Positions 3,723 to 24,518 of a stretch of 64,000 bases of DNA are shown piece after piece. Both the position numbers and the translations under genes were made by a program. The DNA lies in assembly GCA_017999345.1 (NCBI GenBank), contig JAGNLY010000001.1:88744-152743 (forward strand), read 5' to 3'. Each line of letters opens with the position of its first letter. Position 1 is the first letter of the stretch. The DNA comes from Candidatus Woesebacteria bacterium. GTDB taxonomy: Bacteria > Patescibacteriota > Microgenomatia > UBA1400 > PJMF01. The notes beneath the pieces were generated by a model. The model was not told the DNA's origin. It did not search any database and saw only the letters and a program-made list of their open reading frames with translations.

Positions 3723-3809
3723 CTTTTTTGATATATAGTATTACAAAAAATAGGTGTTATCAGGCTATAGTATAATCGTGATTACAAGAAACGTTTAGAA
3801 AAAGGAAAA

Positions 3810-4799
3810 ATGCCACACATTTTAATCAATGGGAAAAAGTTTGAGAAAAAAGATTTTGAACTTGAAAGTGATTTTGAGGATGCTGTAATTGAGAATAGCA
3901 CCAATCTATTCGGTCAAGATGCTATTTATATAGATGTCAAAAAATTAATTGGTACAGATAAGAAGTACCACAAAGGCATTCCAGACGGTTATTTAATAGA
4001 TTTTGTAGATTTGCAACAACCTCAACTGTATTTTGTTGAAAACGAGTTATCCGCTCATGATATTTATGGTCATATTACTGAGCAAATCGGTAGATTTAGT
4101 GCAATGACTATAAACTCCACAAGAGAGGTTAAAGATAAGCTTCTTGCAGTAATTAGAGAAGATGTAAAATTAATGAATCATTTACAGCAAAGAATTGAAA
4201 AGTCACCGTTTCATAATATAGATAACCTAATGGACTTCTTGACAGAAAAAAACCAAATAAAAATTGTGGTTGTTGTTGATGAAGAAACCAATGATCTTAA
4301 TTCAACCCTAAATATCTTTAGACAAAGACCTGATGTTGTTACACTTCAAAGGTATGAATACCAAAATGAAGTTGTTTATTTTTATCAACCAATGAGAGAA
4401 GAAATTGAAAACCAACAAATAATGGCAAAAGAAAATATTGTTAGAGAATTTGACACAGTTGTTTGTCCTGCATTTGAAGATGGTTTTAAAAAAGCATATC
4501 TTGAGCAAAGTGCCTGGTGGTCAATTAGATTGTCACAAAAAGCAATAGAGCAACTAAAATATTTAGCTATTTATGAGAAATCGCCAGTAGCAGAAATAAA
4601 ACATATAGCAGAGATTGACAGAATTGAGCCTTATAAAGATTCTGGTAAGTACATTTTATATCTTAAAAATAAAAGAAAAATTAACCCAGTAAAGCTCGGT
4701 AAGAATGCAAAGGCTGGCACAGCACCTCAAGGTTCAAGATATACAACTCTAGAGAAGTTGAGTAGTGTGAGTAAGTTGAATGAATTGTGGGGAAGTTAA
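3810..4799 (+). CDS. Hypothetical protein of 329 aa with a possible PD-(D/E)xK-type nuclease core
   Basis: A TATAAT box and an AAAAAGGAAAAATG ribosome-binding site lie upstream. The motif IPDGYLIDF...YFVENELS resembles a PD-(D/E)xK nuclease core. The assignment is tentative. Confidence 0.55.
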   Translation: MPHILINGKKFEKKDFELESDFEDAVIENSTNLFGQDAIYIDVKKLIGTDKKYHKGIPDGYLIDFVDLQQPQLYFVENELSAHDIYGHITEQIGRFSAMTINSTREVKDKLLAVIREDVKLMNHLQQRIEKSPFHNIDNLMDFLTEKNQIKIVVVVDEETNDLNSTLNIFRQRPDVVTLQRYEYQNEVVYFYQPMREEIENQQIMAKENIVREFDTVVCPAFEDGFKKAYLEQSAWWSIRLSQKAIEQLKYLAIYEKSPVAEIKHIAEIDRIEPYKDSGKYILYLKNKRKINPVKLGKNAKAGTAPQGSRYTTLEKLSSVSKLNELWGS

Positions 4800-4805
4800 A
4801 TCATA

Positions 4806-5393
4806 ATGATAGATAAAGAACTGTACCTAAAAATTTCAAAATCTTACGGTGAGTTTGCAAGTTGGGCAATTTGGGCAAAAGTAGGTGTTAAGCCAAAATC
4901 AAATATAGGTAACACAACTATTTTTGATTTGGAAAGTAATCCAGATTTATTAAATGAACTGAACCCAAACATTATTATGGTTGGGTTGAATTTTTCAAGA
5001 ATTGGAAGAAAAGAATGCTTCGCAAATTTTCATGATAGTAGACCTCAGGGACAAGATTATAAAATTAGGTATGCTTTCGAGGATACCAAGTTTTATGGTG
5101 CTTATATGACAGACATAATTAAAGATTTTGAAGAAAAAGTCTCAGGGAAAGTCATGTCATATTTAAGGAACAATGAAGAATTTGAACAACAAAATATCAA
5201 ATTATTCAAAGAAGAGTTGATTTCCTTAAATACTAAAAATCCTTTGATTATTGCGTTCGGAAACGATGTATATAAAATCTTACAAAAGCATTTTGTGGGT
5301 CAGTATCAGATTATTAAGATTCCTCACTATAGTAAGCATATTAGTAAAGAAGATTACAGAGCTGAAGTTGAAAAGTTATTGTCAGCTTACTAA
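4806..5393 (+). CDS. Uracil-DNA-glycosylase-superfamily-like protein (putative)
   Basis: IIMVGLNFS (UDG motif A-like G.NP) and IPHYSK (motif B-like HPS) are at the expected spacing. The gene is followed by an A1-type repeat. Confidence 0.5.
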   Translation: MIDKELYLKISKSYGEFASWAIWAKVGVKPKSNIGNTTIFDLESNPDLLNELNPNIIMVGLNFSRIGRKECFANFHDSRPQGQDYKIRYAFEDTKFYGAYMTDIIKDFEEKVSGKVMSYLRNNEEFEQQNIKLFKEELISLNTKNPLIIAFGNDVYKILQKHFVGQYQIIKIPHYSKHISKEDYRAEVEKLLSAY

Positions 5394-5459
5394 CTTTTTC
5401 TATTTTTAAATTTGTAAGTTATTATTTTGTGTCTTAATTAGTAATCTTGCAAATTTTTC

Positions 5460-5541
5460 AGCAAATCCATTAGTTTCATCCTTACTAATCCCCAGTAAAT
5501 CCTCTTTATACCCGTTCCGTAACGAGTCCAATAAGGGGAGC
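5460..5541 (+). repeat. Intergenic repeat, module A1 (long form), ending GGGGAGC. No module B follows it.
   Basis: aaatccattagtttcatccttactaatccccagtaaatcctctttatacccgttccgtaacgagtccaataaggggagc. The same element recurs at ~7338 and ~16045. Confidence 0.8.
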
Positions 5542-5569
5542 TTATGAGTAAATATATTGATAAACCAAA

Positions 5570-6484
5570 CTATTTTACGTTTAAATGGTGTTGGTTTTCA
5601 CTGTGTTTGTCAGTAACACAATCCACGCCTGAACAAGAGCTTTCATTCTCTATCTCAATAGTGGAGTGCTCAATGTGATGTTTTTCCAGTTCTGTTTTAA
5701 TAAGTGATTTCATTTCTTCTGCTTTGCTCGTAACCTGATCTTTGATGACAACATGCCCTGTGAATACGTCGGTTTCGCCATCAAGTGACCATACATGAAT
5801 GTCGTGAACTCCTACAACCTCTTTGACTTTGAGCAAACCTTTTTTGATATGGTCAATATTAATATGACTAGGTACTCCCTGCATTAAAATATTTAGGCTT
5901 TCTTTCAGATTTTTACTTACACCCCACAATATGAAAACGGTATACCCAATTGTCATAATTGGGTCGATGATAGGGTTGTTCCAAAAATACATCACTACAC
6001 TACCTATTAACACCATTACCCAACCCAATACATCTTCGAGTAAATGCCAAGTCAACGCTTTTTCGTTCATACTTTGACCACTTCTCAGTTTTAAGAAACC
6101 AAAGCCATTGAAAATCACACCAATAATGGCCAAGAAAATCATGCCCTGTACATGGACAGGTTCAGGATTGAGTAAACGCGGAATTGCTTTGCTAAGAATG
6201 AAGAGAGATCCACTCATTAACACAACTGAGGTGAAGACAGCAGCACCTAACGAAAGTCGTTTATACCCAAAGGTTCGTTTTTGATCAGGTCCTTGCTGAG
6301 ACTTTTTCTCGGCAATCCAAGCTAAAATGAGAACTAAACTATCACCAAAGTCGTGAAGAGCGTCAGACAAAATTGTCAAACTATTAGTAAAAAGACCTCC
6401 AGCGATCTCAATCAGTGTAAAAGTAATGTTTATGACAATTGCCCAAGAAAGATTATTTGTTTTGCCGTGATCGTGTGAGTGCAT
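5570..6484 (-). CDS. Cation diffusion facilitator (CDF) family metal efflux transporter of the CzcD/ZitB type
   Basis: Six transmembrane helices and a His-rich N-terminus (MHSHDHGK). The sequence contains typical CDF signatures (SLAILSDALHDFGD, HVWSLDGETDVFTGHVVI). Confidence 0.85.
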   Translation of the reverse strand: MHSHDHGKTNNLSWAIVINITFTLIEIAGGLFTNSLTILSDALHDFGDSLVLILAWIAEKKSQQGPDQKRTFGYKRLSLGAAVFTSVVLMSGSLFILSKAIPRLLNPEPVHVQGMIFLAIIGVIFNGFGFLKLRSGQSMNEKALTWHLLEDVLGWVMVLIGSVVMYFWNNPIIDPIMTIGYTVFILWGVSKNLKESLNILMQGVPSHINIDHIKKGLLKVKEVVGVHDIHVWSLDGETDVFTGHVVIKDQVTSKAEEMKSLIKTELEKHHIEHSTIEIENESSCSGVDCVTDKHSENQHHLNVK

Positions 6485-7284: not shown

Positions 7285-7337
7285 TTAATTTTTCGAAGAT
7301 TTATATTTTTTTAGATTTGACTAACTGACAACTGAAC

Positions 7338-7458
7338 AAATTGTTTACTAAATCTATTAACTTCATCTTTATTTATCCCTAACAAATGCTCTTTATATCC
7401 GTTCCGTAACGAGTCCAATAGGGGGAGCAATAACCAAATTAGATCTATATACCAATCT
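7338..7458 (+). repeat. Intergenic repeat: module A1 followed by a degenerate module B
   Basis: ...ctctttatatccgttccgtaacgagtccaatagggggagc then aataaccaaattagatctatataccaatct. Confidence 0.8.
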
Positions 7459-8524: not shown

Positions 8525-8611
8525 GAGATAGTTAGCAATCCTTCCTCATAACCGTTCCTTAACGCATCCGTCAGGGGGAGCTTTTTCCAAAATAGATCTA
8601 TATATCAATCT
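8525..8611 (+). repeat. Intergenic repeat: module A2 followed by a degenerate module B
   Basis: aatccttcctcataaccgttccttaacgcatccgtcagggggagc then tttttccaaaatagatctatatatcaatct. Confidence 0.75.
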
Positions 8612-8650: not shown

Positions 8651-9118
8651 TTAACTAATTGATGTAAATATGGATTTTTCTAGGTATTGCTGTGCTTGAG
8701 CAACTAATCCATTTAGATAATCAGTTATCTCACTTGCCAAATGACCCTCAGTTGCCTTTGTGATTAGTAACTTACAGATCTGTGTTGCATAATAACCATT
8801 TGGATCTTTATCTTTATCGCATAGGTTTACTCTTGCAAGTTCAAATTGTTCTACTTCTTCCAAATTACCTTTATCACTTGATAAATAACCTATTAACCAA
8901 TATTCTTTGTCTGTTTCATTAGATTCTAGTCCAGCACTAACTCTAGTTTCAGTATTGAGTTCGTCATTTCTTGCTACTTGATTGAAAATTACATCAATTG
9001 TTGGCATGAGTAAAACATCTGCCGTTTCTGGATGTGCATTTTCTCCCGATATTAGTTCAGCAGAAGTGCAGATGGAATTTGAAACAACTGAATCATAGCC
9101 TTTGAGTATCATAAACAT
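8651..9118 (-). CDS. Hypothetical protein of about 155 aa. This is the only inverted gene inside the repeat-bounded array.
   Basis: ORF track 8651-9184, trimmed to the internal Met because the N-terminal poly-Ile extension is a translated AT-rich leader. The module B promoter on the opposite strand points into this gene. Confidence 0.55.
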   Translation of the reverse strand: MFMILKGYDSVVSNSICTSAELISGENAHPETADVLLMPTIDVIFNQVARNDELNTETRVSAGLESNETDKEYWLIGYLSSDKGNLEEVEQFELARVNLCDKDKDPNGYYATQICKLLITKATEGHLASEITDYLNGLVAQAQQYLEKSIFTSIS

Positions 9119-9162
9119 AAATATATCATATTTTATTCTAATGATAATAATAATTATTAGAT

Positions 9163-9257
9163 AAACAAGTAATTTTCCACCCACTTCCTAGTTCGAGTAA
9201 CAACCTGTTGGGGGAGCTTTTAAATTATAGGCTTATTTACGCCTATATACCAATCCT
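9163..9257 (+). repeat. Intergenic repeat: module A3 followed by a full-length module B
   Basis: aagtaattttccacccacttcctagttcgagtaacaacctgttgggggagc then ttttaaattataggcttatttacgcctatataccaatcc. The B module is identical to the copy at 16132-16170. Confidence 0.85.
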
Positions 9258-9311
9258 TTTTAATTTATATATGATCATCAGTAATTTTTAGTTATTTGAT
9301 ATAATTACTGA

Positions 9312-10529
9312 GTGATAAGTAAAGAACTACAAGAAATTTTGGATACAAGGATAGAGTCAGAGGCAACTTTAAATACGCTTTTTGCCGTTATCAGAAGTGG
9401 TTTGTTGGGTGAGATTAATGCTACTCAAAAATTAAAATTATCTGCTAGATTTGAGGAAGCCTCAATTGTTTTAAGAGAGCTCAGCGAATCGCCTAAAGAA
9501 GAAATTGCACAAACACTTCAACATGAGCAAGATAATTTAAAAGAATTACCACCATTGAATATACAATTACCGCAAATTTCTTATGGAAAGAGAATGCCTT
9601 TGGGAAGAAAGGCATATGAATATACCTTTGGTAATAGTAAAAATGCATCATCATATAAATTTTCAGATAATCCAGCTTATTATTTTACAATGGGTCAGCA
9701 GAATGACGTCAATGCAAGAGAATCTGAATTTTATAGAAGAGAAGTATTAAGGTCAAACATACCTAGGGCTATTATTCTTGATACCAGTTATATAACCGAA
9801 AGAGGCGTAAGTTTAATTAGGTTGTATAGGATGCATGATGGTTTATTTGAAAATGTCCAAGAAGGAGTTTTTGATAATTCTCGTCCATTCAAACAGGCCG
9901 ATGTTACGGTTTTGAGTCCAAAAGGAAAATTTGAGGCTGAAAATAATGAAATAATTATTGCCTTATCAAAAGGATATTCAGTATTTCCAAAAATGGCTTT
10001 TGGAGAAAGATTCACGTTTGATAGAGGACAAGAAATTTATAATGATAATTTGCTATCAGCTGACAAAACTAATTTTGATAATCGAGAGGCATTACTATGG
10101 AAAAATAATAAATTAAATTCTGATAAAGTAGTTGAAATAATAGCAAAAAGCTTACTTTACTTAAAAAAAGGAATGTCAATAATAATTTTTTCAGACCTAT
10201 TGGAGATAAGTAATCTTGATGAAATTGATAAGACAATTATATTTGAAATGATATATTTTCTTGCATTAGGAATGGGAATTACAGAGTCTCTTGGCTTCCA
10301 ATCGGACCTTTCTGCGAGATCGCCTCAGAAAGTAAATTTTTATAATTCAAATGATCGACCTGAAGGAATTTTTCATAAGCCTAAAGAAGTTGTTTGGATA
10401 AATAAACAGCCAGAAGAAAAAACTCAAGAAGAGATTGCGCTCGTAGAAAAAATAAACGACACATTTAGGTCTGGAGGAAGTTGGATAGAGAACTATGAAA
10501 AGTGGAAAGAAGCATTTCTAAATAAGTAA
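9312..10529 (+). CDS. Hypothetical protein of 405 aa
   Basis: ORF with a GTG start 9 nt after TGATATAAT (an extended -10). Its TAA stop is the first triplet of the following A3 repeat. Confidence 0.6.
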   Translation: MISKELQEILDTRIESEATLNTLFAVIRSGLLGEINATQKLKLSARFEEASIVLRELSESPKEEIAQTLQHEQDNLKELPPLNIQLPQISYGKRMPLGRKAYEYTFGNSKNASSYKFSDNPAYYFTMGQQNDVNARESEFYRREVLRSNIPRAIILDTSYITERGVSLIRLYRMHDGLFENVQEGVFDNSRPFKQADVTVLSPKGKFEAENNEIIIALSKGYSVFPKMAFGERFTFDRGQEIYNDNLLSADKTNFDNREALLWKNNKLNSDKVVEIIAKSLLYLKKGMSIIIFSDLLEISNLDEIDKTIIFEMIYFLALGMGITESLGFQSDLSARSPQKVNFYNSNDRPEGIFHKPKEVVWINKQPEEKTQEEIALVEKINDTFRSGGSWIENYEKWKEAFLNK

Positions 10530-10604
10530 TTTTCCACCCACTTCCTAGTTCGAGTAACAACCTGTTGGGGGAGCAAATACTAAATTATAGCCATAAACCA
10601 ATCT
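10521..10604 (+). repeat. Intergenic repeat: module A3 followed by a degenerate module B
   Basis: aagtaattttccacccacttcctagttcgagtaacaacctgttgggggagc then aaatactaaattatagccataaaccaatct. Confidence 0.8.
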
Positions 10605-10971
10605 TTTTTAATATCAATTTTTTTTAAACAGTTGTAATTATTTATTATAATTTTATACTGATGTTAGCGTTAATTAATTCTATATATGAATCTAATTGCA
10701 TTTTTTTACTTATATTGGAAACAGATAATTGCTGTAATTTTGTTTGTTTTACTACCATTTATTTGGCTGTCATTTCAATGGGGACTTATTATTTATTTAA
10801 TTGAAACTAAACTTAGACCTAAGTTAAAGAAAAAGAATTAGAGGTTATTAAAAATGTTGTCAACTCTCTTTTTAAGAAAATTATAAGTACAGTTGAAGTT
10901 GAATAATTGTTTTCTAGATATTCTCAGTCTGTTTCAAAGAAAATTTGTTAACATGTTATAATCTGTTTCAT

Positions 10972-11598
10972 ATGAAAAAAAATAAGATTATAATAATTTT
11001 ATTAGCTTTTTTAATCACTTTCTTTGGAATTTATTTACTCTCAAAAAACGTTAGATTTAATGATAATAAGAAAGTTGTTGCTGAAACAGAAAATGATAAT
11101 TTGGAGCTTGAAGAAATTTCCCACTTTGATGATGACGCACTAGGGTTATCACTTAATTTTCCTGAGGGATGGTTTATCCACAAAGTAACTTCAAATGGCA
11201 ATGGAGCAAGACAAGTTACATTTACAAATCATTATTCTATAAATCCACCATGGGATTTAGATGAAAATAGCGGAATTGCTATTTTTGTTTCAAACAGTGT
11301 TTTAGACACCTGTTACTCTGAAGATGATTATCAACCAATGATTGATTTACCAATGAATGACAAATATAAAAATGAATGCAGAATCTTTACTAAGATAAAT
11401 GAATTTATGATCGATGGAAGCACTGCATATGTATTTGAACAACAAAATGTTGGTTCATCTATTGAAGGTGAAGCTAAGATTAATCTTTATTTAATTAATA
11501 CTCCTTCAGGTACAATTAATTTGGAGATCTTTAGCAAGAATTTAGATTTATCATTCGAAAAACCTGAACACATAATTTCTTCTGCAAGTTTATTGTAG
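10972..11598 (+). CDS. Secreted or membrane-anchored hypothetical protein
   Basis: N-terminal signal or anchor (MKKNKIIIILLAFLITFFGIYLLS). ATG 10972 follows TGTTATAAT (an extended -10) by 9 nt. Confidence 0.65.
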   Translation: MKKNKIIIILLAFLITFFGIYLLSKNVRFNDNKKVVAETENDNLELEEISHFDDDALGLSLNFPEGWFIHKVTSNGNGARQVTFTNHYSINPPWDLDENSGIAIFVSNSVLDTCYSEDDYQPMIDLPMNDKYKNECRIFTKINEFMIDGSTAYVFEQQNVGSSIEGEAKINLYLINTPSGTINLEIFSKNLDLSFEKPEHIISSASLL

Positions 11599-11880
11599 TT
11601 CCATTATTTTTCATATAACTCAACCATAATCATATTTCTTTGTATAAGCCTTATACATTGACCATATAATCTTACCCTATATAATCAGTTTTTGTGCACT
11701 ATAAATAGTACACAACATAGTCATAGAAGGTTAGCAATAGTACAAAAACGTATTTGAGCTGGCCCGATGGATTGTTCTTTAACAGTTGAATATAAAAAAG
11801 GAGGTAGTCTTCTCAAAAATGTTCGTTGTTGTTTAATCAGATTTTCAAAACGATTTCTATAGAAAAAGGAGTTAGGTACT

Positions 11881-14800
11881 ATGTTAGCAAAACATAAGTT
11901 TTTCAGATTTTTGTTAGCTTTTTGGTTAATTATGTCGCAAGGCATAACAGCTTTGGCATCTGGTGAGCTTTCAAGCTACAGGTTGCCTTACTATGGACCA
12001 GCAGAGATGGTCTATGGAAGTTCATATCATTCAGGCCTTTCATTCCAAGCAAGAGATTTTGATATTGGAGTGGATACAGGTGTATATGCTGACGAGGAAG
12101 GATATGTACTATTTGCTGGCTGGCGAAATGATGGCTTTGGATATACTCTTGTGTTGATGCACGATGATGGTTACATGAGTCTGTTTGGACACTTATCTAG
12201 AGCCACATACGACCAAGGTGATACTGTCAATGATGAGGTCTTTTTTGCAGTAAGTGAAGGAGAAAATGTTGCTAAAGGACAATTGATTGCTTTTACTGGC
12301 AATTCTGGATCGAATGGCAGCCCAGCTCATCTGCATTATGAGGTTAGATACAATAATGATTTCAATGGACAGACACATCAACAAATTCAAGGAACTGCAT
12401 CGCTAAATAACTTTTGGTTGGCAGATCAGGCAGTGAGTCTTGACTCTATACCTGATTTAGATGCAAACAACTACTCAAATGATATGGTTGGTCCGCCTGT
12501 TTCAGATCCTGCATGCGGAGATAGGTCATATTCTGGCATAGATTTTTTTGATGATGAATATTGCCAGAATCAAAGCCTGTGGTATTCAAATTCCACGGGT
12601 TCACAAAGTGTTTCTGCACAAAATGTTGAATCAATTTTTGTTGGCTCAGGATGGTCCGCATACATTACTGATGGAGTCAATGTAGGCATTTGTGCAAACA
12701 GAAATCTATGGGATTTGGGAAAAGATTTTTACCCAAATGGCAGTAATATAAAACACAACATTGCATTTGTTCAGGTTTACAATGATTCTACTTGCAATGG
12801 TATGGTTGAGCCTTATAACCCAGATATATCTGCCAGTGGAGGTACTGGAGGCGGTGGAACTGCGAGTGGTTATGTAGAGATCTTCCAATCCACTAACTTT
12901 GGTGGAACAAAATTGGGAGACTACTCAATTGGTACTCACAGCTTTTCTGTAAATACCCTAATGTATTCTTTCAGAATGAAAGATGGGGCTAACAGTTTTG
13001 TTGTGAAGGACGACACTGGCAACAACCAATGCTTTGACTCAGATGTTTCGAATATGCAAGATAATTCAGATTTTTGGAACAAAACGGTTGAAGTTGAGGT
13101 TTTCACAAGCAATGTTTGTGGAAGCGTTAACGGTGAAGTTATAGTTTACAGCGCTACAAACTATACTGGAAATGTGGTAGGAACTTACACGGCAGGCAAT
13201 ACATACACCTTCCCTGTAAATACTCTCATGTTTTCTTTTGATACAAATGGCGCTGGTAGTTTTGTCGTAACTGCTCCTGATGGACGTCGTCAATGTTTTA
13301 ACTCTGACGTCCCAAACATGCAAGATTATTCTGAATACTGGAGAGAAACGATAAAACTTGAAGTAAATACGAACGACTACTGTCCTCCTGTTGGCAGTCC
13401 TGCTCCTGTAGTAGGGAGTGGGAATGGTCTTTGGAGAAATGAATTTAGAATCCTTTGGGAGGAAGTAGATATTCCAGATTTCACTTACATTGCCCCATTA
13501 TCTTGGGGTCCTGTAAACACAGTAACAAGAGAAGGTCACTCTAGAAGTGATCAATTTGGTATGCAGTTTGAAGGTTGTATAGAGCTTCCAGCTACTGATA
13601 CATATACTTTCTATCTTCTGTCTGACGATGGGAGTAGGCTGTACATTGATAATCAGCTGGTAGTTAATAATGATGGTCGACACTCTGCAACTGAAGTAAG
13701 TAGTTCTGTTGTCAAACAATCAGGACAATATGATTTCAAGGTTGATTACTATGAAGATGATGGTGGTGAAGAGCTGTTCTTACAAGTCTCGACACCAACA
13801 ATGACAAAACAACCTGTTCCTGATAGTTGGTATAGCTATGGCTTGGCCTGTACTGGTGTTCAAGTGGGAACCCCACTAAATACTTCCAGTTGGGCATATA
13901 GCCAAACCCTCACAATCGATTCAGATTTTGTGGGTGAAGATTTAATAAACTTTCCTGCGCTTCTGTCTGATGGAGTTTTCGTAGATGATGTTTACGTAAA
14001 CGCCTTGGATAATGGTGCAGATCTTAGATTTACTTCAGATGCTCTTGGAACTAATGAACTAGCTTTCGAAGTAGTGAGTTGGAACCAATCTGCCAAAACC
14101 AGTGAAGTTTGGGTCAATATACCCAGTGTGTCGGCTTCAGTCGATACATCAATATACGTTTGGTATGGCAATACATCTGCTGTGGCATATGCCAGTGGCG
14201 AAACGTATGGTAGCCAAAATGTGTGGGGTGACTACGCGTTGGTTATGCATATGAGCCAATATGGTAAAGCAAGTTTTGATTCAACCAGCAACTACAACAA
14301 TGCTCGGTCTACTATGAGCATTGCAAGTAATGTTGGAAAGGTGGGTTCGGCGTCTGATTTTGAGGCTGATGGTAGTCAATTTATGACCATTATGCCTAAT
14401 AACAATACGCTGGATTTACCGACTTACACTATTCAAGCATGGGCTTTCAACGAGTCCTTTGCTTATACATATCCATCGATTGTTAATAACAGAAGTGCAT
14501 CAAGTTCGAATGGTAACTATGTTGTTATGTTCCATGGTGATATCGGATACAAACCGCATTCACAACATTGGACGGGATCAGCATGGTCATCTGTTCCATG
14601 GGGAACTAGTGCTTCGCCACAAACTTGGTACATGGTTAACGCAGTATACGATGGTTCATTGCACAAAATGTCTGTTGATGGCGATTCTTTTGTCATTGGC
14701 AGCAGTCAAGTCGCACCACAGCTTAACGATAATCCAATCTTGATTGGCAACTATACGTCCAACTACTTTGATGGACTTATTGATGAGTTGCGCATGAGTG

Positions 14801-15882
14801 ATGTTGTGAGATCTCAAACATGGATCGAAACTGAGTATAATAATCAGTCAGATCCAGAAGTATTTTTTTCAGGAAGTGGTGTCTCAGGTGGTTCATCTAC
14901 TTGGGATTACAGTCAGACCTTGACGATTGATGCCAGTAAAGTTGTTGCTGATGCAATTAATTTTCCTGTGTTGATATCTGATGGAGTTTTAGCTGATCAC
15001 TTCTATAACAATTCCAATACCGACTGCACAGATCTTCGTTTCAGTAGCGATGCAGCAATGACCAACGAACTTCCTTTTGAGGTAGTGAGTTGTGATACTG
15101 TTGCAAAGACCGCTGAGATTTGGGTTAAAGTGCCGACTATATCAAGTAGCGTTAACACTGTGTTTTATGCTTGGTATGGAAATAGTTCGGCCACTGCATA
15201 TGTAGACACTGATATATATGGTGCTCAAAACGTGTGGAACGATTACGCGTTGGTTATGCATATGAATGAGGCAAGTGGGTCAAGATATGACTCAACTGCA
15301 AACAACAGTGTAGCTACGCCGACTGGTTCTATTATCAGTGGTGTTGGAAAAATTGGTTCTGGGGTAGATTTGGAATATAGTAGTTCTCAGTACCTAACAG
15401 TAACTCAGAACGCTGTCCTAGATCTGCCAACCTATACCATTCAGGCTTGGGCATTTAATGAGTCGTTTGCTTCTACGTATCCTACGATTATTAGTAATAG
15501 AAGTAACAGCGATTCAAATGGTAACTATTTTGTACTGTTCCATGGTGATATCGGATACAAACCGCATTCACAATACTGGACAGGATGGACTTGGTCATCC
15601 GTATACACGAATACTAGCTCATCAGCACAAACTTGGTATATGGTAAATGTCGTTTATGACGGAGCTAATCACAAAATCTCTGCAAATGCTGAGACATTCG
15701 TTTCAAGTGTAAAACCCGCTCCGCAACTAAATAACAATCCTATCCTAATTGGCAAGTACACCAATCACTATTTTGATGGGATTATTGATGAACTAAGAAT
15801 GTCGAGTGTAGTTCGCTCACAAGCTTGGATTGATACTGAGTATAACAACCAGTCCGATCCATCGTCATTCTTTGTTCCTTAG
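11881..15882 (+). CDS. Giant secreted multidomain protein. From the N-terminus: a signal peptide, an M23 (LytM-type) metallopeptidase domain, a PA14 domain, and two copies of a DUF2341 plus LamG-like jelly-roll module.
   Basis: AAGGAG ribosome-binding site upstream. M23 motifs are present (HDDGYMSLFGHL, GNSGSNGSPAHLHYEV). PA14 region: FGMQFEGCIELPATDTYTFYLLSDDGSRLYIDNQLVV...YYEDDGG. DUF2341-like regions: SQTLTID...NFPALLSDG...DLRF...WV..P..S......YYGN. LamG-type module endings: DELRMSDVVRSQTWIETEYNNQSDP. A terminator follows the gene. Confidence 0.85.
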   Translation: MLAKHKFFRFLLAFWLIMSQGITALASGELSSYRLPYYGPAEMVYGSSYHSGLSFQARDFDIGVDTGVYADEEGYVLFAGWRNDGFGYTLVLMHDDGYMSLFGHLSRATYDQGDTVNDEVFFAVSEGENVAKGQLIAFTGNSGSNGSPAHLHYEVRYNNDFNGQTHQQIQGTASLNNFWLADQAVSLDSIPDLDANNYSNDMVGPPVSDPACGDRSYSGIDFFDDEYCQNQSLWYSNSTGSQSVSAQNVESIFVGSGWSAYITDGVNVGICANRNLWDLGKDFYPNGSNIKHNIAFVQVYNDSTCNGMVEPYNPDISASGGTGGGGTASGYVEIFQSTNFGGTKLGDYSIGTHSFSVNTLMYSFRMKDGANSFVVKDDTGNNQCFDSDVSNMQDNSDFWNKTVEVEVFTSNVCGSVNGEVIVYSATNYTGNVVGTYTAGNTYTFPVNTLMFSFDTNGAGSFVVTAPDGRRQCFNSDVPNMQDYSEYWRETIKLEVNTNDYCPPVGSPAPVVGSGNGLWRNEFRILWEEVDIPDFTYIAPLSWGPVNTVTREGHSRSDQFGMQFEGCIELPATDTYTFYLLSDDGSRLYIDNQLVVNNDGRHSATEVSSSVVKQSGQYDFKVDYYEDDGGEELFLQVSTPTMTKQPVPDSWYSYGLACTGVQVGTPLNTSSWAYSQTLTIDSDFVGEDLINFPALLSDGVFVDDVYVNALDNGADLRFTSDALGTNELAFEVVSWNQSAKTSEVWVNIPSVSASVDTSIYVWYGNTSAVAYASGETYGSQNVWGDYALVMHMSQYGKASFDSTSNYNNARSTMSIASNVGKVGSASDFEADGSQFMTIMPNNNTLDLPTYTIQAWAFNESFAYTYPSIVNNRSASSSNGNYVVMFHGDIGYKPHSQHWTGSAWSSVPWGTSASPQTWYMVNAVYDGSLHKMSVDGDSFVIGSSQVAPQLNDNPILIGNYTSNYFDGLIDELRMSDVVRSQTWIETEYNNQSDPEVFFSGSGVSGGSSTWDYSQTLTIDASKVVADAINFPVLISDGVLADHFYNNSNTDCTDLRFSSDAAMTNELPFEVVSCDTVAKTAEIWVKVPTISSSVNTVFYAWYGNSSATAYVDTDIYGAQNVWNDYALVMHMNEASGSRYDSTANNSVATPTGSIISGVGKIGSGVDLEYSSSQYLTVTQNAVLDLPTYTIQAWAFNESFASTYPTIISNRSNSDSNGNYFVLFHGDIGYKPHSQYWTGWTWSSVYTNTSSSAQTWYMVNVVYDGANHKISANAETFVSSVKPAPQLNNNPILIGKYTNHYFDGIIDELRMSSVVRSQAWIDTEYNNQSDPSSFFVP

Positions 15883-15984
15883 AAAGAGGCTTAAATATAA
15901 AATATTCAACAATTAAAGATTTAAAAAATGTTTTTTGCTAACACTGGCTCAAATTTGCGAGTCAATTGTTAACAGAAGATAAGT

Positions 15985-16026
15985 AACTAAGACCCTCAGG
16001 TTTGATAACTGAGGGTCTTTTTTTTA
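15985..16026 (+). terminator. Rho-independent terminator
   Basis: gaccctcag - gtttgataa - ctgagggtc followed by a T-run. Confidence 0.75.
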
Positions 16027-16044
16027 TTGAAACTGTTACAAAAT

Positions 16045-16170
16045 TGTATGTTAAATTCTTTAACCTCTGACATAGTGATCTCTAACAAATGCTCTTTATA
16101 TCCGTTCCGTAATGAGTCCAATAGGGGGAGCTTTTAAATTATAGGCTTATTTACGCCTATATACCAATCC
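16045..16170 (+). repeat. Intergenic repeat: module A1 (long form) followed by a full-length module B
   Basis: ctctaacaaatgctctttatatccgttccgtaatgagtccaatagggggagc then ttttaaattataggcttatttacgcctatataccaatcc. Confidence 0.85.
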
Positions 16171-16276
16171 TCTTTTAATATAATGAAAAACTACTTAACT
16201 TTAAAAATTAAGTATCTTTATTTGTCAGTAAATTTTTATGTTACATAAAAAATAAAAGTAATGGTATTCTTTATTT

Positions 16277-18409
16277 ATGCACGAGCGAAGTGGTAATAAA
16301 TTTTTAGTCAAACAATTTCCCGATCTGCACAAATCAGAAGATGTTTTGGCTGCAACAATAAAAGTTTCTAGAAAAAACCTAGGCCATCAAAATCCAAATT
16401 CTTTTAATAAAGAGGAGCGGGTTAATATTTACCTAGATCGTATAAAAAAACTTTTTATTGATCCTGACGAAAGAGCTAGAAAACGTAACATAAAGTTAGT
16501 GGCTAGTAAGTTATTTGAAGATATAGTTATTTCTGAAGACAATTTTCCTGATGCCTATTTAGAAAATGAACAAAAATTGGCAAAAGAGCGTGGACATGGT
16601 CATATTGAGATTACCCAAGAACTGAAAAGAAAAGCTATTGGATTTGTTCAGAATGATCAAAAAGCTAGTTATAGTAGATGGTTAGATTATTTTTCAAGTG
16701 ATGATGCACCTTATCCTACATGGTTTAAATATTATGTATTGAGAGGCGTGTCAAAACTTCTGCCATATGATAAAGTTAGTGGTAAATTCCACAAACGCTC
16801 AAAGAGCTCTACGAAAATTTTTCCTGAAATTAATAGAGAAGCACTAGCATTTGTTTATGAGGCTATGGATACTGACGAGACTTCAGATATTGATCAACAG
16901 CTTAAAAGCTTACTTGTTGGTGGTAATTTTGCAAAGTTATATGGTTATGCTGTGGAAACGCAATTATCGCAATCAATTGAAGCTAAAGAAAAACGTAAAA
17001 GTATTAAAGGGAGCTGGAAGTTATTCGAGCAGTATGATGAAACTAAACTTGATGAATCCGAAGCTAACTTGAGAACACTTGTTGATTCAATACAGGGAAT
17101 GGGGACTGGTTGGTGTACAGTGGGCGAAGAAATGGCGAGGAGTCAATTAGAGGGCGGTGACTTTTATGTTTTTTATTCTCGTGATGATAATGAGCAAGAC
17201 ACAGTTCCTAGAGTTGCAATCAGAATGGAGCATGGTGAGGTTGCTGAGGTTAGGGGTGTAAACCCCGATCAAGAGCTAGAGCCAGAACTAATTGATACTG
17301 CTAGAGAAAAATTTGTAGAATTGCCAGGTGGTGATAGGTATGAGAAGAAGGTCTTAGATATGAAAAGACTAACTAAGCTGGAAGAAATGATTTCCAAAAA
17401 TGAAGAGCTTACAGTTGATGATTTGCGTTTTTTATATGAATTAGATAGTTTAATAGAAGGATTTGGTTACACAAACGATCCAAGAATTAAAAAACTTCAA
17501 TCACAGAGAGACATCGATATAGACTACAACCGTTTGTTCATAAAAACAACAGATATAGAACTCAAAATAAGAGAAGGTAAAGAACTTACCAGAGAAGAAC
17601 TTATTTACTTATATGGAGTTGAGCGCCTTTTTAATCCTTCAAAAGACGTTGAAGACAAGAGGCTTAAAAATAATAAGATGTTTGTCAAAAATAAGAAAAA
17701 GCTACTTGAACTTTCTCAAGAAAGAGAAATTCGTGCAGAGGAAATCGCTTCCATATTTGGAATTAGTACTGAAGAAGTTGCTACTAAAAAAGAAGGTGCG
17801 GGAGAGAAGACAAAAATATATGTAGGCAAAATATTTCCAGGAATAAAGAATTTGCAAAACCTTGAACATATTTACATATCTTTTCCTGACTCAGAGTTGA
17901 TTACTACCGAAGTAAGAACGAAAGCAAATTCCTCTCAAGAACTTCTAGATATTGTTAATAATAGCTCAAATGTTGGTATAACTAAGGCATATGGTGAAAG
18001 TACTCAAAGAGACATTGAGGGAACGATATTAAATTTAAAGGTATTTAAATCTGAAAAAAGTATTATAAATGAAGTTTGTATTATGACATCTGAACAACTT
18101 GGTTTAACGCCTTTTTTTGGAGAAAGATTTGAGCAAGGAGGTTTGGAAGCAGTATTTGATAGAATAGAAAGTTTAGGTTTAGAAGTCTGTCCACCAGAAA
18201 TAGCGTTGGAATATGCTATTCAAAATATTGGCAAGATACCTAGTGGAACTAAATTTTATTTAGGAAAAGATCCTGTAGAAAGACCAAATAAAACACCTGG
18301 TTATCTTAAACTAGAATTTTTCAATACGAATATTATTGTAGATTTTTACGGTGTTCCAAGAGGTAGTAACTTTTGTAATAATTATGTAGTAAGAATTCCT
18401 GTTATCTAA
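16277..18409 (+). CDS. Hypothetical protein of 710 aa, large and hydrophilic, with no recognised domain
   Basis: Long ORF with an ATG start. It is flanked by A/B repeats on both sides. Confidence 0.7.
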   Translation: MHERSGNKFLVKQFPDLHKSEDVLAATIKVSRKNLGHQNPNSFNKEERVNIYLDRIKKLFIDPDERARKRNIKLVASKLFEDIVISEDNFPDAYLENEQKLAKERGHGHIEITQELKRKAIGFVQNDQKASYSRWLDYFSSDDAPYPTWFKYYVLRGVSKLLPYDKVSGKFHKRSKSSTKIFPEINREALAFVYEAMDTDETSDIDQQLKSLLVGGNFAKLYGYAVETQLSQSIEAKEKRKSIKGSWKLFEQYDETKLDESEANLRTLVDSIQGMGTGWCTVGEEMARSQLEGGDFYVFYSRDDNEQDTVPRVAIRMEHGEVAEVRGVNPDQELEPELIDTAREKFVELPGGDRYEKKVLDMKRLTKLEEMISKNEELTVDDLRFLYELDSLIEGFGYTNDPRIKKLQSQRDIDIDYNRLFIKTTDIELKIREGKELTREELIYLYGVERLFNPSKDVEDKRLKNNKMFVKNKKKLLELSQEREIRAEEIASIFGISTEEVATKKEGAGEKTKIYVGKIFPGIKNLQNLEHIYISFPDSELITTEVRTKANSSQELLDIVNNSSNVGITKAYGESTQRDIEGTILNLKVFKSEKSIINEVCIMTSEQLGLTPFFGERFEQGGLEAVFDRIESLGLEVCPPEIALEYAIQNIGKIPSGTKFYLGKDPVERPNKTPGYLKLEFFNTNIIVDFYGVPRGSNFCNNYVVRIPVI

Positions 18410-18481
18410 TTAGTTTTTTAACAATATTAAAATTTTTCTGAAAACAAAAATCCCATAACAAATTTCTCAACATTTTTCTTC

Positions 18482-18559
18482 CAGATCTGATGAGTTCGAG
18501 TAACAACCTGTTGGGGGAGCTTTAAAATTATAGGCTTATTTATGCCTATATACCAATCT
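18482..18559 (+). repeat. Intergenic repeat: module A4 (a 5'-truncated relative of A3) followed by a full-length module B
   Basis: ctgatgagttcgagtaacaacctgttgggggagc then tttaaaattataggcttatttatgcctatataccaatct. Confidence 0.85.
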
Positions 18560-18568
18560 TTTTTTACA

Positions 18569-18634
18569 TATACACCCCCGACAGGACACTTTAGCCTTGG
18601 ACCCGAACAGAGTAAACTATTTGATATAATATTT
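18569..18634 (+). promoter_or_regulatory. Module C upstream element ending in the extended -10 TGATATAAT. It probably produces a leaderless transcript for gene 18637.
   Basis: cccccgacaggacactttagccttggacccgaacagagtaaactatttgatataat, with the ATG 8 nt downstream. Confidence 0.55.
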
Positions 18635-19139: not shown

Positions 19140-19574
19140 GTGAATTTAATTATAACTAAATCAACTGAGAAAGAAGTCGAAGCCTTTGAAGCTCAATCTT
19201 GGAGTGCTGAGGATCTAAAACATTATAGAAGAGAAGTTTCTTGGGATGAATGGAATCCAACCAAATTTATTTTCAAAGCAGAACTAGATAACGAGATTGC
19301 TGGCATTATTGGAGGAAATATTACCGTTGGCGTTACTTTCATAGAAAGAATAATTGTTTCTGAATCATTTAGGAAAATGGGTATCGGTAAACAACTTATA
19401 CAAAAAGTTGAAGATTATGCAAAAGAGCTGAATTCTCATAAAATATATCTTTATACTGGAAAAGATTGGTCTTCAAACAAATTTTATGAACAAATTGGTT
19501 TTAAAAATACTGGCGAACTTGAAAATCACTATTTAAATGTTGATTTTGTAATTTACACTAAATTCTTGAAATAA
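19140..19574 (+). CDS. GNAT family N-acetyltransferase
   Basis: The acetyl-CoA binding region is RKMGIGKQLIQKVEDYAKE (the R/Q-x-x-G-x-G/A motif). A GTG start lies 11 nt after the upstream stop, and the pair probably forms an operon with 18637. Confidence 0.8.
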   Translation: MNLIITKSTEKEVEAFEAQSWSAEDLKHYRREVSWDEWNPTKFIFKAELDNEIAGIIGGNITVGVTFIERIIVSESFRKMGIGKQLIQKVEDYAKELNSHKIYLYTGKDWSSNKFYEQIGFKNTGELENHYLNVDFVIYTKFLK

Positions 19575-19626
19575 TAAGTAATTTTCCACCCACTTCCTAG
19601 TTCGAGTAACACCCCAGCGGGGGAGC
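19571..19626 (+). repeat. Intergenic repeat, module A3 variant. Its 5' end overlaps the tandem TAA stops of the GNAT gene, and it has no module B.
   Basis: taagtaattttccacccacttcctagttcgagtaacaccccagcgggggagc. Confidence 0.8.
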
Positions 19627-20369: not shown

Positions 20370-20439
20370 GCACTTCCTGATTTCCTCTATGACGGGGAGC
20401 ATTTAAATTAAAATCTTATTTATTCCTATATACAAATCT
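20370..20439 (+). repeat. Intergenic repeat: module A5 (short form) followed by a degenerate module B
   Basis: cacttcctgatttcctctatgacggggagc then atttaaattaaaatcttatttattcctatatacaaatct. Confidence 0.7.
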
Positions 20440-20448
20440 TTTTTCAAT

Positions 20449-20515
20449 ATATATACCCCGATAGGACAGGTTTGCTCGAGACTCGAACTGAGATAAAAAT
20501 GTCTGCTATAATTTT
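20449..20515 (+). promoter_or_regulatory. Module C ending in the extended -10 TGCTATAAT, upstream of gene 20531/20564
   Basis: ataccccgataggacaggtttgctcgagactcgaactgagataaaaatgtctgctataat. Confidence 0.5.
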
Positions 20516-20563
20516 ATTATTAACTTGAATATGTTAAAAAATATTTCTTTTGAAAGGAATAAA

Positions 20564-21769
20564 ATGTCTCTATCTCATGAAAAGGATGATAAATTAAATA
20601 TTGATCATAGTGAAGACTATAAAGATGGGATTTTTTATTTACCTGAGAGAGGCTTAGTTACAGATGGCACATTTAAATATACAAAGCAGGCTGTACAATT
20701 AAAATTAGAAACTCTTTTAGCAAATCAATCATCATATCCAGCAGATAAAGATAATGTTCAAAATGCCATAAAACAAACAGAATATATGCTTTCTTTATTT
20801 CCAGAAGAAAGAGATGATGAAAAACCCTTCATAGGTCAAACTTCTCCTAATCTAGAGAGTGAGGAGAAAGCTTTTCATCCTGATAAAAATGACACACTAG
20901 AAAATCAACTAAAAAAATATCAAGATTTAGTCAAATATTCTGGACCTCACTCAATTTTAGGTAAATTCTATAGAACACAAATTGCAAGAATTAATAGACT
21001 TATATCTCGTGAAGAAATTAAATTATTTGAAGAAAAAGCTGTTGCTATAAAGAGAATAAATAAGCTAGCAAGTGACTTAGGAGTTTCTATCAGGGAGCCT
21101 TATGTAAAGGATAGAGCACCAGGATTAGATGAGGCAACTTATGCATATCGTTTGCAAGTACTTCCCATGCTTAGAATTCTGTCCAAATTAATTGATTCTT
21201 GGTCAATAAATCTAGCCAATATGCCAGTGGTTGAATTGCTATCTCATGGCTCAAAGGTTTCGGATGAAGATTTATTAAAAGTAGCTAATAAGCTAGCAAC
21301 TTTTGTATTGAATGCACTCGACAATAAGTCTTCTGATCCAGAATTTGCTCATAAAATTAATAATTTATTAAACGCAGGCTCATTATCAGAGTTATTAGAT
21401 GCTATTGAAAAAGAATTTGATAAGAGTTCTCTTGACACAGAATCTCAAGAATCAACACTACTCACAGAACAAACTTCTGAAGTTGCAGAATATGAAAGCA
21501 ATGCTCAAGAAGTAGATATCTCATCAATTGCTGAAACTTTGATGGAAGCAAGAAGAAGTGTGGAACCAACTATGCCATGGGATCTAATTAAAAAATTAGC
21601 TGTATTAATTGTTGAGAATCATCCTGAAATTATTATGGTTTTTAATAATCAAATGCAAACATTACTAGCTGAATCTCATCAAACGCTTCCTAGTGGAGTT
21701 CATGATTCTGATGTAGCAGGAAGATTGAATCCACTCATCATTGAATTGAGATCTAAATTAAAATCATAA
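20564..21769 (+). CDS. Hypothetical protein of about 400 aa. It is a paralog of the gene at 23628 through a shared segment of about 40 aa.
   Basis: The start was chosen at the ATG preceded by GAAAGGAATAAA. Alternative ATG starts exist at 20531 and a TTG at 20525. The protein contains ENQLKKYQDLVKYSGPHSILGKFYRTQIARIN. Confidence 0.6.
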   Translation: MSLSHEKDDKLNIDHSEDYKDGIFYLPERGLVTDGTFKYTKQAVQLKLETLLANQSSYPADKDNVQNAIKQTEYMLSLFPEERDDEKPFIGQTSPNLESEEKAFHPDKNDTLENQLKKYQDLVKYSGPHSILGKFYRTQIARINRLISREEIKLFEEKAVAIKRINKLASDLGVSIREPYVKDRAPGLDEATYAYRLQVLPMLRILSKLIDSWSINLANMPVVELLSHGSKVSDEDLLKVANKLATFVLNALDNKSSDPEFAHKINNLLNAGSLSELLDAIEKEFDKSSLDTESQESTLLTEQTSEVAEYESNAQEVDISSIAETLMEARRSVEPTMPWDLIKKLAVLIVENHPEIIMVFNNQMQTLLAESHQTLPSGVHDSDVAGRLNPLIIELRSKLKS

Positions 21770-23627: not shown

Positions 23628-24518
23628 ATGCAAATTGAATCTGATGACTTCCACACAGGAAGTGGAATTAATGAAGAACAATATGACGCGCTGGAGAATC
23701 AATTAAAAAAATATCAAGATTTAGCCAATTATTCTGGACCTCATTCAATATTAGGTAAATTCTATAGAACACAAATTGCAAGAATTAATAGTCTTATACT
23801 TAGCAATAAAATTCAACCTTTGGAAAAAAATGAAGGTGATGAAAGCCCAGGTAAACAAACGGCTTCATCTGAGCAGGATTTACCATCTATTGAGGAATTA
23901 GATAGAGAGCTTAATGATTTATCTCATGAAATTGCAAAAGGATTCTATAATGATCAAGCTTACATGATTAATATAATGAACCTTAATATCATATTGAGTT
24001 TAGTAAAAAATTTAATAGTTAGAGGAAATGGCCAGTTTGGATTGAGCATCAGAGAAGGTCTTTCATACATACTAAGAAATGAAACTGCTAGAAGAGAAAT
24101 CATAAATTCATCAACACTTATGCTGGTAGCAGTCACTACAACGGAAGCCTATCTGGAAGGGAAAATGGAAATACTGAGTGGTGGAGATAGTAATTCTCAA
24201 TATTACGAAAATTTATACATGAATTACGGTCCATCTCAGCCGAGAAGTGGCGTTGATTTTAGATTAAATGGAGTAACTAATGGTGATATAGATGCATTAG
24301 CTAAAGTTTTTGTTTCTAACCAGAAAGATGGGATTATGTTGGATTCATTTGGCCAAATTGCTAATATTTTTCAACATGCAAAGAAGTATGGCATAAATCC
24401 AATAAGAACCCTGATTAGAATTAAGGATGTAATTCTAGAATTAGGTACAAGAGCTTCTGAATATCAAAAAAGAACCTTAATTAATGTGAATGATGCACTC
24501 TCTAAATTACTTGGATAA
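23628..24518 (+). CDS. Hypothetical protein of 296 aa, a partial paralog of the gene at 20564
   Basis: Contains ENQLKKYQDLANYSGPHSILGKFYRTQIARIN. This region is encoded by a ~113 nt stretch about 91 percent identical to 20881-20995. Confidence 0.6.
   Translation: MQIESDDFHTGSGINEEQYDALENQLKKYQDLANYSGPHSILGKFYRTQIARINSLILSNKIQPLEKNEGDESPGKQTASSEQDLPSIEELDRELNDLSHEIAKGFYNDQAYMINIMNLNIILSLVKNLIVRGNGQFGLSIREGLSYILRNETARREIINSSTLMLVAVTTTEAYLEGKMEILSGGDSNSQYYENLYMNYGPSQPRSGVDFRLNGVTNGDIDALAKVFVSNQKDGIMLDSFGQIANIFQHAKKYGINPIRTLIRIKDVILELGTRASEYQKRTLINVNDALSKLLG

Follow-up and report, generated by a model that had tools for sequence, protein, structure and literature searches.

The question raised by this locus is what a Candidatus Woesebacteria cell gains from a 1333-amino acid (aa) protein that joins a peptidase to a long series of putative binding modules, and how such a protein came to be assembled. 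The gene lies at nucleotides (nt) 11881-15882 on the forward strand of a 64,000-nt stretch of contig JAGNLY010000001.1 (positions 88,744 to 152,743, hereafter the window). It is an uninterrupted open reading frame (ORF) with an ATG start, and the product is recorded at NCBI, on a 253-kb contig, as MBP7700538.1 (Candidatus Woesebacteria; Microgenomates, Candidate Phyla Radiation, CPR). From the N-terminus, the protein comprises a signal peptide, an M23 peptidase, three beta/gamma-crystallin-type domains, a PA14 domain and two DUF2341-LamG modules. The combination of M23 with three beta/gamma-crystallin-type domains, PA14 and two DUF2341-LamG modules is new, while each single part, like the general class of multidomain secreted peptidoglycan hydrolases, was known before. 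Also new are the exchange of a head cassette on an approximately 90% conserved body and the location of the gene of the nearest homologue, P0001 (1400 aa, JGI metagenome, 79% identity overall), in a pilus cluster. We give an even chance to the reading that the protein leaves the cell by the Sec route, is targeted to glycans or receptors and hydrolyzes the envelope of other cells.

Domain architecture, head exchange and module duplication

The following parts of the gene (all on the forward strand) were distinguished.

11881-11958: Sec-type signal peptide (aa 1-26, predicted cleavage after A-L-A; read from the translation)
11986-12375: M23 (LytM/lysostaphin-fold) metallopeptidase head (aa ~36-165; Pfam, PDB sequence matches, AlphaFold2 (AF2) model and Foldseek)
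12508-12798: first beta/gamma-crystallin-like domain, D1 (aa 210-306, two Cys pairs; predicted local distance difference test (pLDDT) 72-93 in the AF2 model)
12799-12867: Gly-rich linker (aa 307-329; pLDDT <50 for aa 310-328)
12868-13395: two tandem beta/gamma-crystallin-type domains (aa 330-415 and 416-505)
13423-13845: PA14 domain region (aa ~515-655; Pfam match, 92% identical to P0001)
13885-14895: DUF2341 + LamG (ConA-like) module 1 (aa 669-1005; Pfam, alignments)
14896-15879: DUF2341 + LamG module 2 (aa 1006-1333; Pfam, alignments)

Read by eye, the N-terminus (MLAKHKFFRFLLAFWLIMSQGITALA, followed by SGE) starts with a basic n-region and continues into a hydrophobic core, and the probable cleavage site follows A-L-A. 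It resembles an ordinary Sec-type signal and not a prepilin (class III) signal, and the N-terminus of P0001 is analogous. Among the residues of the protein, S, G, N, D and T are abundant and K, R and E scarce; its 12 Cys residues are arranged as within-domain pairs, consistent with disulfide bonds.

The head was matched by Pfam Peptidase_M23 (PF01551) over aa 59-159 with 63.6 bits versus a cutoff of 28.7. It carries HLHYE at aa 150-154, and H150-L-H152 aligns with the HLH of TagE, StM23 and lysostaphin; H104 lies within GHLS, and D61 aligns with the canonical M23 Asp. PDB sequence matches included the active M23 enzymes TagE/Csd, StM23, lysostaphin and LytM, and also EnvC. A Foldseek search with the head from the AF2 model of aa 1-520 (mean pLDDT 77) returned the LytM domain of EnvC, StM23, lysostaphin and LytM (E 2e-8 to 5e-7, TM(target) 0.65-0.75).

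The segment that follows, aa 210-505, consists of three beta/gamma-crystallin-type domains. The tandem pair (aa 330-505) was modeled with pLDDT >90, and Foldseek matched it to gamma-D, gamma-B and gamma-E crystallins with E 1.6e-6 to 3e-6 over ~185 columns, i.e., to the double Greek-key fold; FxxxxFxG and YxxxxYxG signatures can be read in the sequence. The two share 47% aa identity (E 6e-27), with DNA repeats spaced 264-267 nt, and thus represent a second internal tandem duplication. D1 is more divergent than the other two. Neither Pfam Crystall nor Crystall_3 matched the protein itself at E <= 1; matches to these Pfam families lie at the D1-equivalent position in the homologues P0039 and P0032.

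In the C-terminal part, Pfam identified PA14 at aa 557-648 (64.8 bits versus a cutoff of 24), DUF2341 in two stretches (58.4 bits) and Laminin_G_3 in two stretches (78 bits), the latter two in tandem, twice. An independent, near-identical 240-aa fragment from ENA (P0010) covers the C-terminal part of module 2. The original prediction, made from the letters of the DNA, had listed the signal peptide, an M23/LytM-type metallopeptidase with HLHYE, PA14 and two DUF2341-LamG modules. This list stands: n-, h- and c-regions are readable in the signal peptide, and in the Pfam check all were above their gathering scores. That account had missed the three crystallin-type domains with their tandem duplication, the exchange of the head and the pilus context of P0001.

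The exchange became apparent from the uneven identity to P0001, which was compared at the protein level throughout, including at the breakpoint and the conversion tracts described below. The head (aa 1-205) shares 24% of its residues with P0001 and D1 shares 34%, whereas the figure is 89-92% from aa ~321 through PA14 and 82-83% in the modules; in blocks of 40 aa identity jumps from 40% at aa 281 to 85% at aa 321, marking a recombination breakpoint at the Gly-rich linker. In place of M23, the head of P0001 is a trypsin-like S1 protease. The head plus D1 of MBP7700538.1 is closer to another homologue, P0015 (42% identity, E 1e-59), with D1 better conserved than the head. Because identity to P0001 is low before aa ~321 and ~90% after it, the catalytic head and D1 are, by sequence comparison, one exchangeable unit, swapped through recombination within or close to the Gly-rich linker (aa 307-329). 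A third, unrecognized head is carried by P0002, whose aa 1-209 gave no PDB relative and no Pfam domain.

The family itself is rare. A full HMMER scan of 1.84 billion cluster representatives recovered the aa 205-520 segment in just 39 of them, and no more than two full-length relatives were retrieved from 5.8 billion clusters. Among the 41 family members counted (MBP7700538.1, P0001 and the 39 cluster representatives), 16 have an M23 domain and two a trypsin domain; the crystallin-like segment is most often paired with M23. Pfam crystallin models match 10-11 of the 41 (best E 2.9e-12). The tails vary and include fn3, PKD, CARDB, LamG, PA14, a neurotoxin-type receptor-binding domain, SH3, a mannanase galactose-binding domain and PPC. 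The sole member with a taxon label belongs to Candidatus Microgenomates. Profile searches with the family alignment retrieved from genome contigs only an unrelated M23 match in a Thermodesulfobacteriota metagenome-assembled genome, and a first search of metagenome contigs retrieved no relative. In a literature search, no description of an M23-crystallin fusion was found.

The two DUF2341-LamG modules were said in the original prediction to be clearly homologous at the DNA level and to result from a relatively recent in-gene duplication. Homology is evident, with 207/329 identical residues (63%, E 1e-149, BLASTP) and 63.7% nt identity over 328 codons. The proposed recent origin is contradicted by two results. 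First, identity at codon positions 1, 2 and 3 is 69%, 77% and 45%, respectively, and the proportion of synonymous differences is 0.747, i.e., at saturation, with a nonsynonymous divergence (dN) of 0.315; because synonymous sites are saturated while dN is 0.32, the copies are, as judged from the codon alignment, old and under purifying selection. Second, P0001 has the same two modules: copy 1 versus copy 1 of the two proteins is 82% identical and copy 2 versus copy 2 83%, compared with 57-63% between copies, and in a four-way alignment 64 sites support orthology and two support within-genome pairing. Since orthologous copies group together, the duplication predates the split of the two lineages. 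Tandem Repeats Finder reported no repeat in the gene, the module period exceeding its 500-nt limit and the identity being too low.

Against this old divergence, two stretches of the codon alignment are identical in both copies (forward strand).

14528-14565 and 15536-15573: 38-nt identical run, containing a 30-mer at 14536/15544 that had been pointed out before
14233-14254 and 15244-15265: 22-nt identical run, from the codon alignment

Both stretches had been noticed earlier and are present, in runs longer than stated and with the second copy of the shorter one beginning at 15244, not 15243. An identical run of at least 38 nt was reached in 0.04% of 5000 codon-column shuffles. The 38-nt run coincides with aa 889-891, which read GYK in both copies of MBP7700538.1 and NFR in copy 1 of P0001; the 22-nt run coincides with aa 786, Ala in MBP7700538.1 and Val in copy 1 of P0001. 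Such runs suggest either short gene-conversion patches from copy 2 into copy 1 or local constraint. The longer run is probably a short conversion tract, and the shorter one is possibly a second patch. We infer the direction of conversion from the P0001 residues; faster evolution of copy 1 of P0001, which is the odd one out at 20 sites compared with 6-14 for the other three module sequences, is an alternative to it.

Possible function

A mechanism that would join these observations begins with the PA14 and LamG modules attaching to glycans or receptors that another cell displays at its surface. The crystallin domains would act as a rigid spacer or stalk, and the M23 head would cut peptide bridges in the peptidoglycan of the bound cell. 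The gene would thus help an episymbiont or predator to attach to, feed on or lyse other cells and would not serve housekeeping wall remodeling. In evolutionary terms, the protein is a product of domain shuffling. An older duplication yielded the paired crystallin domains; purifying selection has preserved the old tandem duplication of DUF2341-LamG, which short gene conversion has probably patched; and the unit of head and D1 has been exchanged at the Gly-rich linker, with M23 in MBP7700538.1 and an S1 protease in P0001.

Several lines of evidence argue for a foreign target over the cell's own wall. The family is rare and taxonomically restricted, and its binding tails are variable; because the crystallin segment occurs in so few clusters and only two full-length relatives were retrieved, the gene is not a core gene. 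Moreover, an endopeptidase head has been swapped for another endopeptidase, and the modules resemble virion receptor-binding proteins: a Foldseek search of the module against viral models gave many LamG/ConA-like plus DUF2341 virion proteins with E down to 1e-17. A DUF2341 protein of 1252 aa (P0006; L007:10001-13759) was observed inside a phage-like structural/tail module, 3' of the major capsid and tape-measure genes and 5' of an SLT/PG_binding lysin, and is probably a tail fiber or receptor-binding protein. DUF2341 is annotated as a predicted component of type IV pilus-like systems, with a proposed role as tip adhesin (PMC4858521; PMC11809585). The receptor-binding character assigned to DUF2341-LamG is supported by this virion and tail likeness, the phage-tail protein, the pilus locus of P0001 and the adhesin proposals. 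For other Patescibacteria, lysis of hosts by their M23 copies has been suggested (PMC9530719; PMC11393006). The earlier guess of an epibiont fits the organism, a CPR bacterium, and a role as host-attack effector is plausible. We infer secretion, enzymatic activity, glycan binding and a foreign-cell target from sequences and models.

A number of points weigh against this reading, the first of them concerning the catalytic site. Ala57 replaces the canonical first His of the HxxxD motif. H50 is the candidate zinc ligand instead (spacing H-x10-D), and a His 6-10 residues N-terminal to the Asp is kept across the M23-bearing members in the family alignment, with the canonical motif retained in P0021; this longer His-Asp spacing resembles that of LasA-type M23A enzymes. 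In the AF2 model H50 sits in a low-confidence loop (pLDDT <50, aa 48-54). Degenerate LytM domains such as that of EnvC are among the best structural matches of the head, and no NCBIfam M23 subfamily came near its cutoff, all scores being 10-50x below. From the model and these alignments, the head is probably, though not assuredly, enzymatically active. As to the binding part, the AF2 model of module 1 is confident in DUF2341 (pLDDT ~90) and of low confidence in LamG, and its PDB matches are weak (E > 0.01); they comprise lectin-like jelly-rolls of sialidases, clostridial neurotoxin binding domains and the lectin-bearing minor pilin PilC of Streptococcus sanguinis (E 0.03). In addition, no immunity gene was identified for the protein, M23 enzymes often act on the producer's own wall, and the ORFs that were examined in the 64-kb window (the larger ones by Pfam, the rest of 39-54 kb read by eye) include no pilin, PilB/C/T or prepilin peptidase.

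This last result bears directly on a first alternative, in which DUF2341-LamG docks to a type IV pilus or pilus-like machinery and the protease head is delivered to the host by extension and retraction. P0001, with its ~90% identical body, lies between pilin genes, a prepilin peptidase and PilC/PilT/PilB, i.e., within a type IV pilus cluster; the weak match to the S. sanguinis pilin points the same way, as does the published association of DUF2341 with type IV pilus loci (PMC11809585; PMC4858521), a docking of this kind having been proposed for DUF2341 proteins of archaeal and PilY-type systems. The adjacency is seen in one locus only, since MBP7700538.1 and the family loci L002-L006 lie outside pilus clusters, and the N-terminus is of the Sec and not the prepilin type. 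We regard such delivery as unlikely for the present protein. A wider version, equally tentative, would see a small Microgenomates family of secreted lysins with "plug-in heads", in which a conserved targeting body of crystallin stalk, PA14 and DUF2341-LamG modules can dock to the type IV pilus and recombination at the linker supplies M23, S1 or unrecognized heads for cutting envelopes.

Somewhat less probable than pilus docking is a nutrient-scavenging exoenzyme, a peptidase tethered by carbohydrate-binding modules to detrital walls or polysaccharide that releases peptides for an auxotrophic cell and has no specific host. According to the Pfam descriptions, degradative enzymes that bind glycans often contain PA14 and LamG/ConA-like modules; the mannanase galactose-binding, PPC and PKD domains among the family tails would suit this role, and a swap between metallo- and serine-protease heads fits general proteolysis. 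It is countered by the narrow specificity of M23 endopeptidases, as indicated by the lysostaphin and LytM matches, and by the surroundings of the gene, where no glycoside hydrolase or transporter genes adjoin it.

We rate a shade lower still the possibility of a housekeeping autolysin or autolysin activator working on the producer's own peptidoglycan in the manner of LytM, EnvC, DipM or MepM. The best sequence and structure matches do include EnvC, DipM, Csd and ShyA, and one family member, P0020, is encoded ~2.5 kb from a dcw-type cluster (MraZ, RsmH methyltransferase, penicillin-binding protein and Mur ligases). Yet the family is extremely sparse, its nearest homologue has a trypsin-like head, a large lectin-like tail is atypical for division enzymes, the NCBIfam scores are far below cutoff, and the genomic context is variable and partly beside recombinase and restriction-modification genes.

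That the duplication or the head/body junction is an assembly artifact or a very recent event is highly improbable, although the sequence stems from a metagenome-assembled genome. The two copies share only 64% of their nucleotides, far too few for an assembler to mix them up, which also excludes the collapsed or expanded repeat that the original prediction had allowed for. The same two-module layout is found in P0001 from another sample, ENA contains the near-identical fragment P0010, the reading frame is uninterrupted and the guanine-plus-cytosine (GC) content is uniform across head, middle and modules (0.40-0.41).

If the plug-in-head reading is right, such lysins would be the enzyme by which these episymbionts breach or feed on their hosts. 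Host attachment and resource extraction in CPR/Patescibacteria are little understood outside a few cultured Saccharibacteria, and the protein offers a testable candidate. Three processes can be followed in this single gene: the exchange of a domain cassette, the preservation by purifying selection of a module that was duplicated in tandem long ago and, possibly, gene conversion on a micro scale. The fusion of M23 with beta/gamma-crystallin domains defines a rare family even should the protein not serve host attack.

Genomic setting

The gene lies between two copies of an intergenic repeat, together with an upstream ORF and its own putative expression signals (all coordinates on the forward strand).

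10519-10614: intergenic repeat copy, left bound (repeat family alignment)
10945-11598: ORF of 217 aa preceding the gene (translation probably starts at the ATG of MKKNK, nt 10972; one N-terminal transmembrane anchor)
11658-11685: candidate promoter, sigma-70-like TTGACC-16-TATAAT (11/12 consensus matches, ~195 nt 5' of the ATG)
11866-11871: Shine-Dalgarno sequence AAGGAG, 9 nt before the ATG
15990-16026: putative intrinsic terminator (10-bp GC-rich stem AGACCCTCAG/CTGAGGGTCT, 9-nt loop, T8 run; read from the sequence)
16040-16183: intergenic repeat copy, right bound (repeat family alignment)
5450-5571, 7337-7458, 8543-8611, 9162-9269, 18465-18572, 19571-19626 and 20373-20452: other repeat copies

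The promoter is a consensus match, and the regional total of promoter-like sites is no higher than in shuffles; by its position, the mRNA leader would be ~190 nt long. The terminator was not listed by an automatic scan, probably because the loop limit of the scan is 8. With both the AAGGAG and the terminator located, the earlier observation that the gene has canonical signals of its own, unlike its neighbors, is borne out. At many neighboring genes a TATAAT box precedes the start codon by 6-10 nt and a Shine-Dalgarno sequence is lacking (starts at 9312, 18637, 19698, 20525, 21947, 26830 and 61239; often TGnTATAAT-like), which suggests widespread leaderless mRNAs in this genome, with the present gene as an exception.

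GC content of the gene is 0.41 versus 0.34 for the window, and GC at third codon positions (GC3) is 0.32 versus 0.19-0.31. Horizontal transfer was considered on these grounds and found weakly supported, much of the excess residing at codon position 2, which reflects amino-acid composition. A second probable secreted protein (58065-59714; right-handed beta-helix, DUF1565) has a GC of 0.40 and a GC3 of 0.32; because it shares these values, the excess is weak evidence of transfer, and raised GC may mark a class of surface or secreted proteins with no need for a foreign origin. Inverted repeats flanking the gene (11776-11793 with 15902-15919; 11882-11902 with 15923-15943) were rejected as terminal repeats: each is short and AT-rich, complementarity reaches only 81-89%, and the copies do not stand in mirrored order.

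The array in which the gene had been placed by the original prediction was recovered as nine intergenic repeats of the same orientation between 5450 and 20452. The repeat core, GGGGGAGC, occurs in 7 exact copies versus 0.38 expected, and a further copy of the repeat was found in the metagenome contig Ga0163150_10000098 (L008:1170-1290). The repeats separate cassette-like genes encoding a methyltransferase, hypothetical proteins, MBP7700538.1, PNPOx plus GNAT, and RibD_C. On the minus strand each repeat presents a TATAAT box followed by ATG/TTG (or a decayed AAG) and a conserved peptide with two variants, LPLLDSLRNGYKE.LLGI.KDE and LPQQVVTRTRKWVENYL, within ORFs of 12-46 aa. In two copies, 7/16 differing codons are synonymous by hand count, which suggests coding constraint on the peptide; searches with it detected no homologue. 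The repeats may have originated from serial site-specific insertions or as a small-ORF/promoter module. They had no Rfam match, and no tyrosine recombinase was found among the ORFs at 904-5393. An integron cassette was rejected: the folding of the repeats does not surpass that of shuffled sequences (z -0.3 to -1.5), and they are not attC-like.

The 217-aa ORF shares the inter-repeat interval with the gene and has no Pfam or NCBIfam match. An ORF of 256-266 aa stands directly 5' of family members in four other loci (L003:8813-9598; L004:9102-9881; L005:9031-9828; P0001 locus 9066-9836), and an N-terminal hydrophobic anchor is visible in the three that were read (L003, L004 and L005). A short motif, D/E-x-x-G-x-S-x-x-(F/L)-P, occurs ~60-80 aa into four of the five upstream ORFs. 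Homology is demonstrable for one pair, L003 versus L004 (E 4e-7); the 217-aa ORF compared with the others was not significant (BLASTP E 0.3-1.0; hhalign probability 5%). The 217-aa protein may be a partner of MBP7700538.1, serving as anchor or for immunity.

Two further family members, in L002 and L006, have genes for a large serine recombinase and restriction-modification methylases no more than a few kb away (features at 1007-2482, 2479-4803 and 7831-9237 in L002, and at 13846-15141, 17074-18426 and 19694-22673 in L006), and this neighborhood hints at island borders. Other family members whose loci were examined stand in unrelated contexts. A DUF2779 protein is encoded two genes 5' of P0002 in L002, and another in the window at 1631-3109.

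Three other features of the window were recorded. A SAM-I riboswitch (RF00162; 38516-38612, minus strand; 48.8 bits versus 44.4) lies directly 5' of an S-adenosylmethionine synthetase gene (37545-38522, minus strand). A 151-nt direct repeat with 84% identity (20886-21036 and 23680-23830) is located inside the ORFs 20525-21769 (414 aa) and 23628-24518 (296 aa), which have no Pfam match and are apparent paralogues flanking a DegT/SHMT-like aminotransferase gene. Two adjacent 37-nt direct repeats (95% identical, TTTAGGACGCCGCACTCAATTTAT..GATTGATCAAC) at 60658-60731 are intergenic between 59671-60621 (plus strand) and 60727-61194 (minus strand).

Comparison with known systems

Two assignments to established classes were considered and set aside. 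In polymorphic toxins and bacteriocins the likeness to MBP7700538.1 would be one of analogy only: its variable part is N-terminal, not C-terminal, and it comes with no identified immunity gene. Membership among the adhesins of type IV pilus clusters holds only for P0001 and, by the ORFs examined in the 64-kb window, not for MBP7700538.1.

With the DUF2341 proteins of pilus loci (arCOG03508 of Methanococci; the hypothesis of a PilY-type tip adhesin), MBP7700538.1 shares DUF2341, present twice, and the location of P0001 in a pilus cluster. It differs from them in lying outside any pilus locus in 64 kb, in its Sec signal and in its enzyme head, and the pilus link of these proteins, for which an adhesin role has been proposed (PMC4858521), is hypothetical even in the literature. 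Phage receptor-binding and tail proteins with LamG/ConA jelly-rolls are similar in that the module model matches many virion LamG and DUF2341 proteins, and tail-associated M23 lysins in that the M23 domain matches phage endolysins. Unlike a phage tail gene, the present one has no phage structural genes around it and comes with a signal peptide, a Shine-Dalgarno sequence and a putative promoter and terminator of its own.

The stalk resembles the microbial beta/gamma-crystallins (Crystall, Crystall_3; I36/SMPI inhibitor fold) in its match to the gamma-crystallin fold and in the Y/FxxxxY/FxG signatures. Unlike those Pfam families, the protein itself lacks a profile match, and the positions of the Ca-binding motif are only partly kept when read by eye.

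For the exchange of the head, a parallel is found in Lysobacter, where one predatory bacterium lyses bacteria with both an alpha-lytic (S1) and a beta-lytic (M23A) protease; the alternation of M23 and trypsin heads between MBP7700538.1 and P0001 or P0018 mirrors this pair. The Lysobacter proteases are separate small enzymes with pro-domains from an unrelated taxon, not heads on a shared scaffold.

A further comparison is with lysostaphin, LytM and zoocin A, bacteriolytic M23 endopeptidases that have the same M23/LytM fold and HxH motif. In contrast to the lysostaphin-type enzymes, the first zinc-ligand His of MBP7700538.1 is not at the canonical HxxxD position, and no FemABX-type immunity gene was seen among its scanned neighbors. 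The logic of the lysostaphin type, a secreted catalytic domain fused to a targeting module, is shared, with a targeting part of ~1100 aa made up of three beta/gamma-crystallin domains, PA14 and two DUF2341-LamG modules in MBP7700538.1 where the lysostaphin-type enzymes have a single SH3b-type domain.

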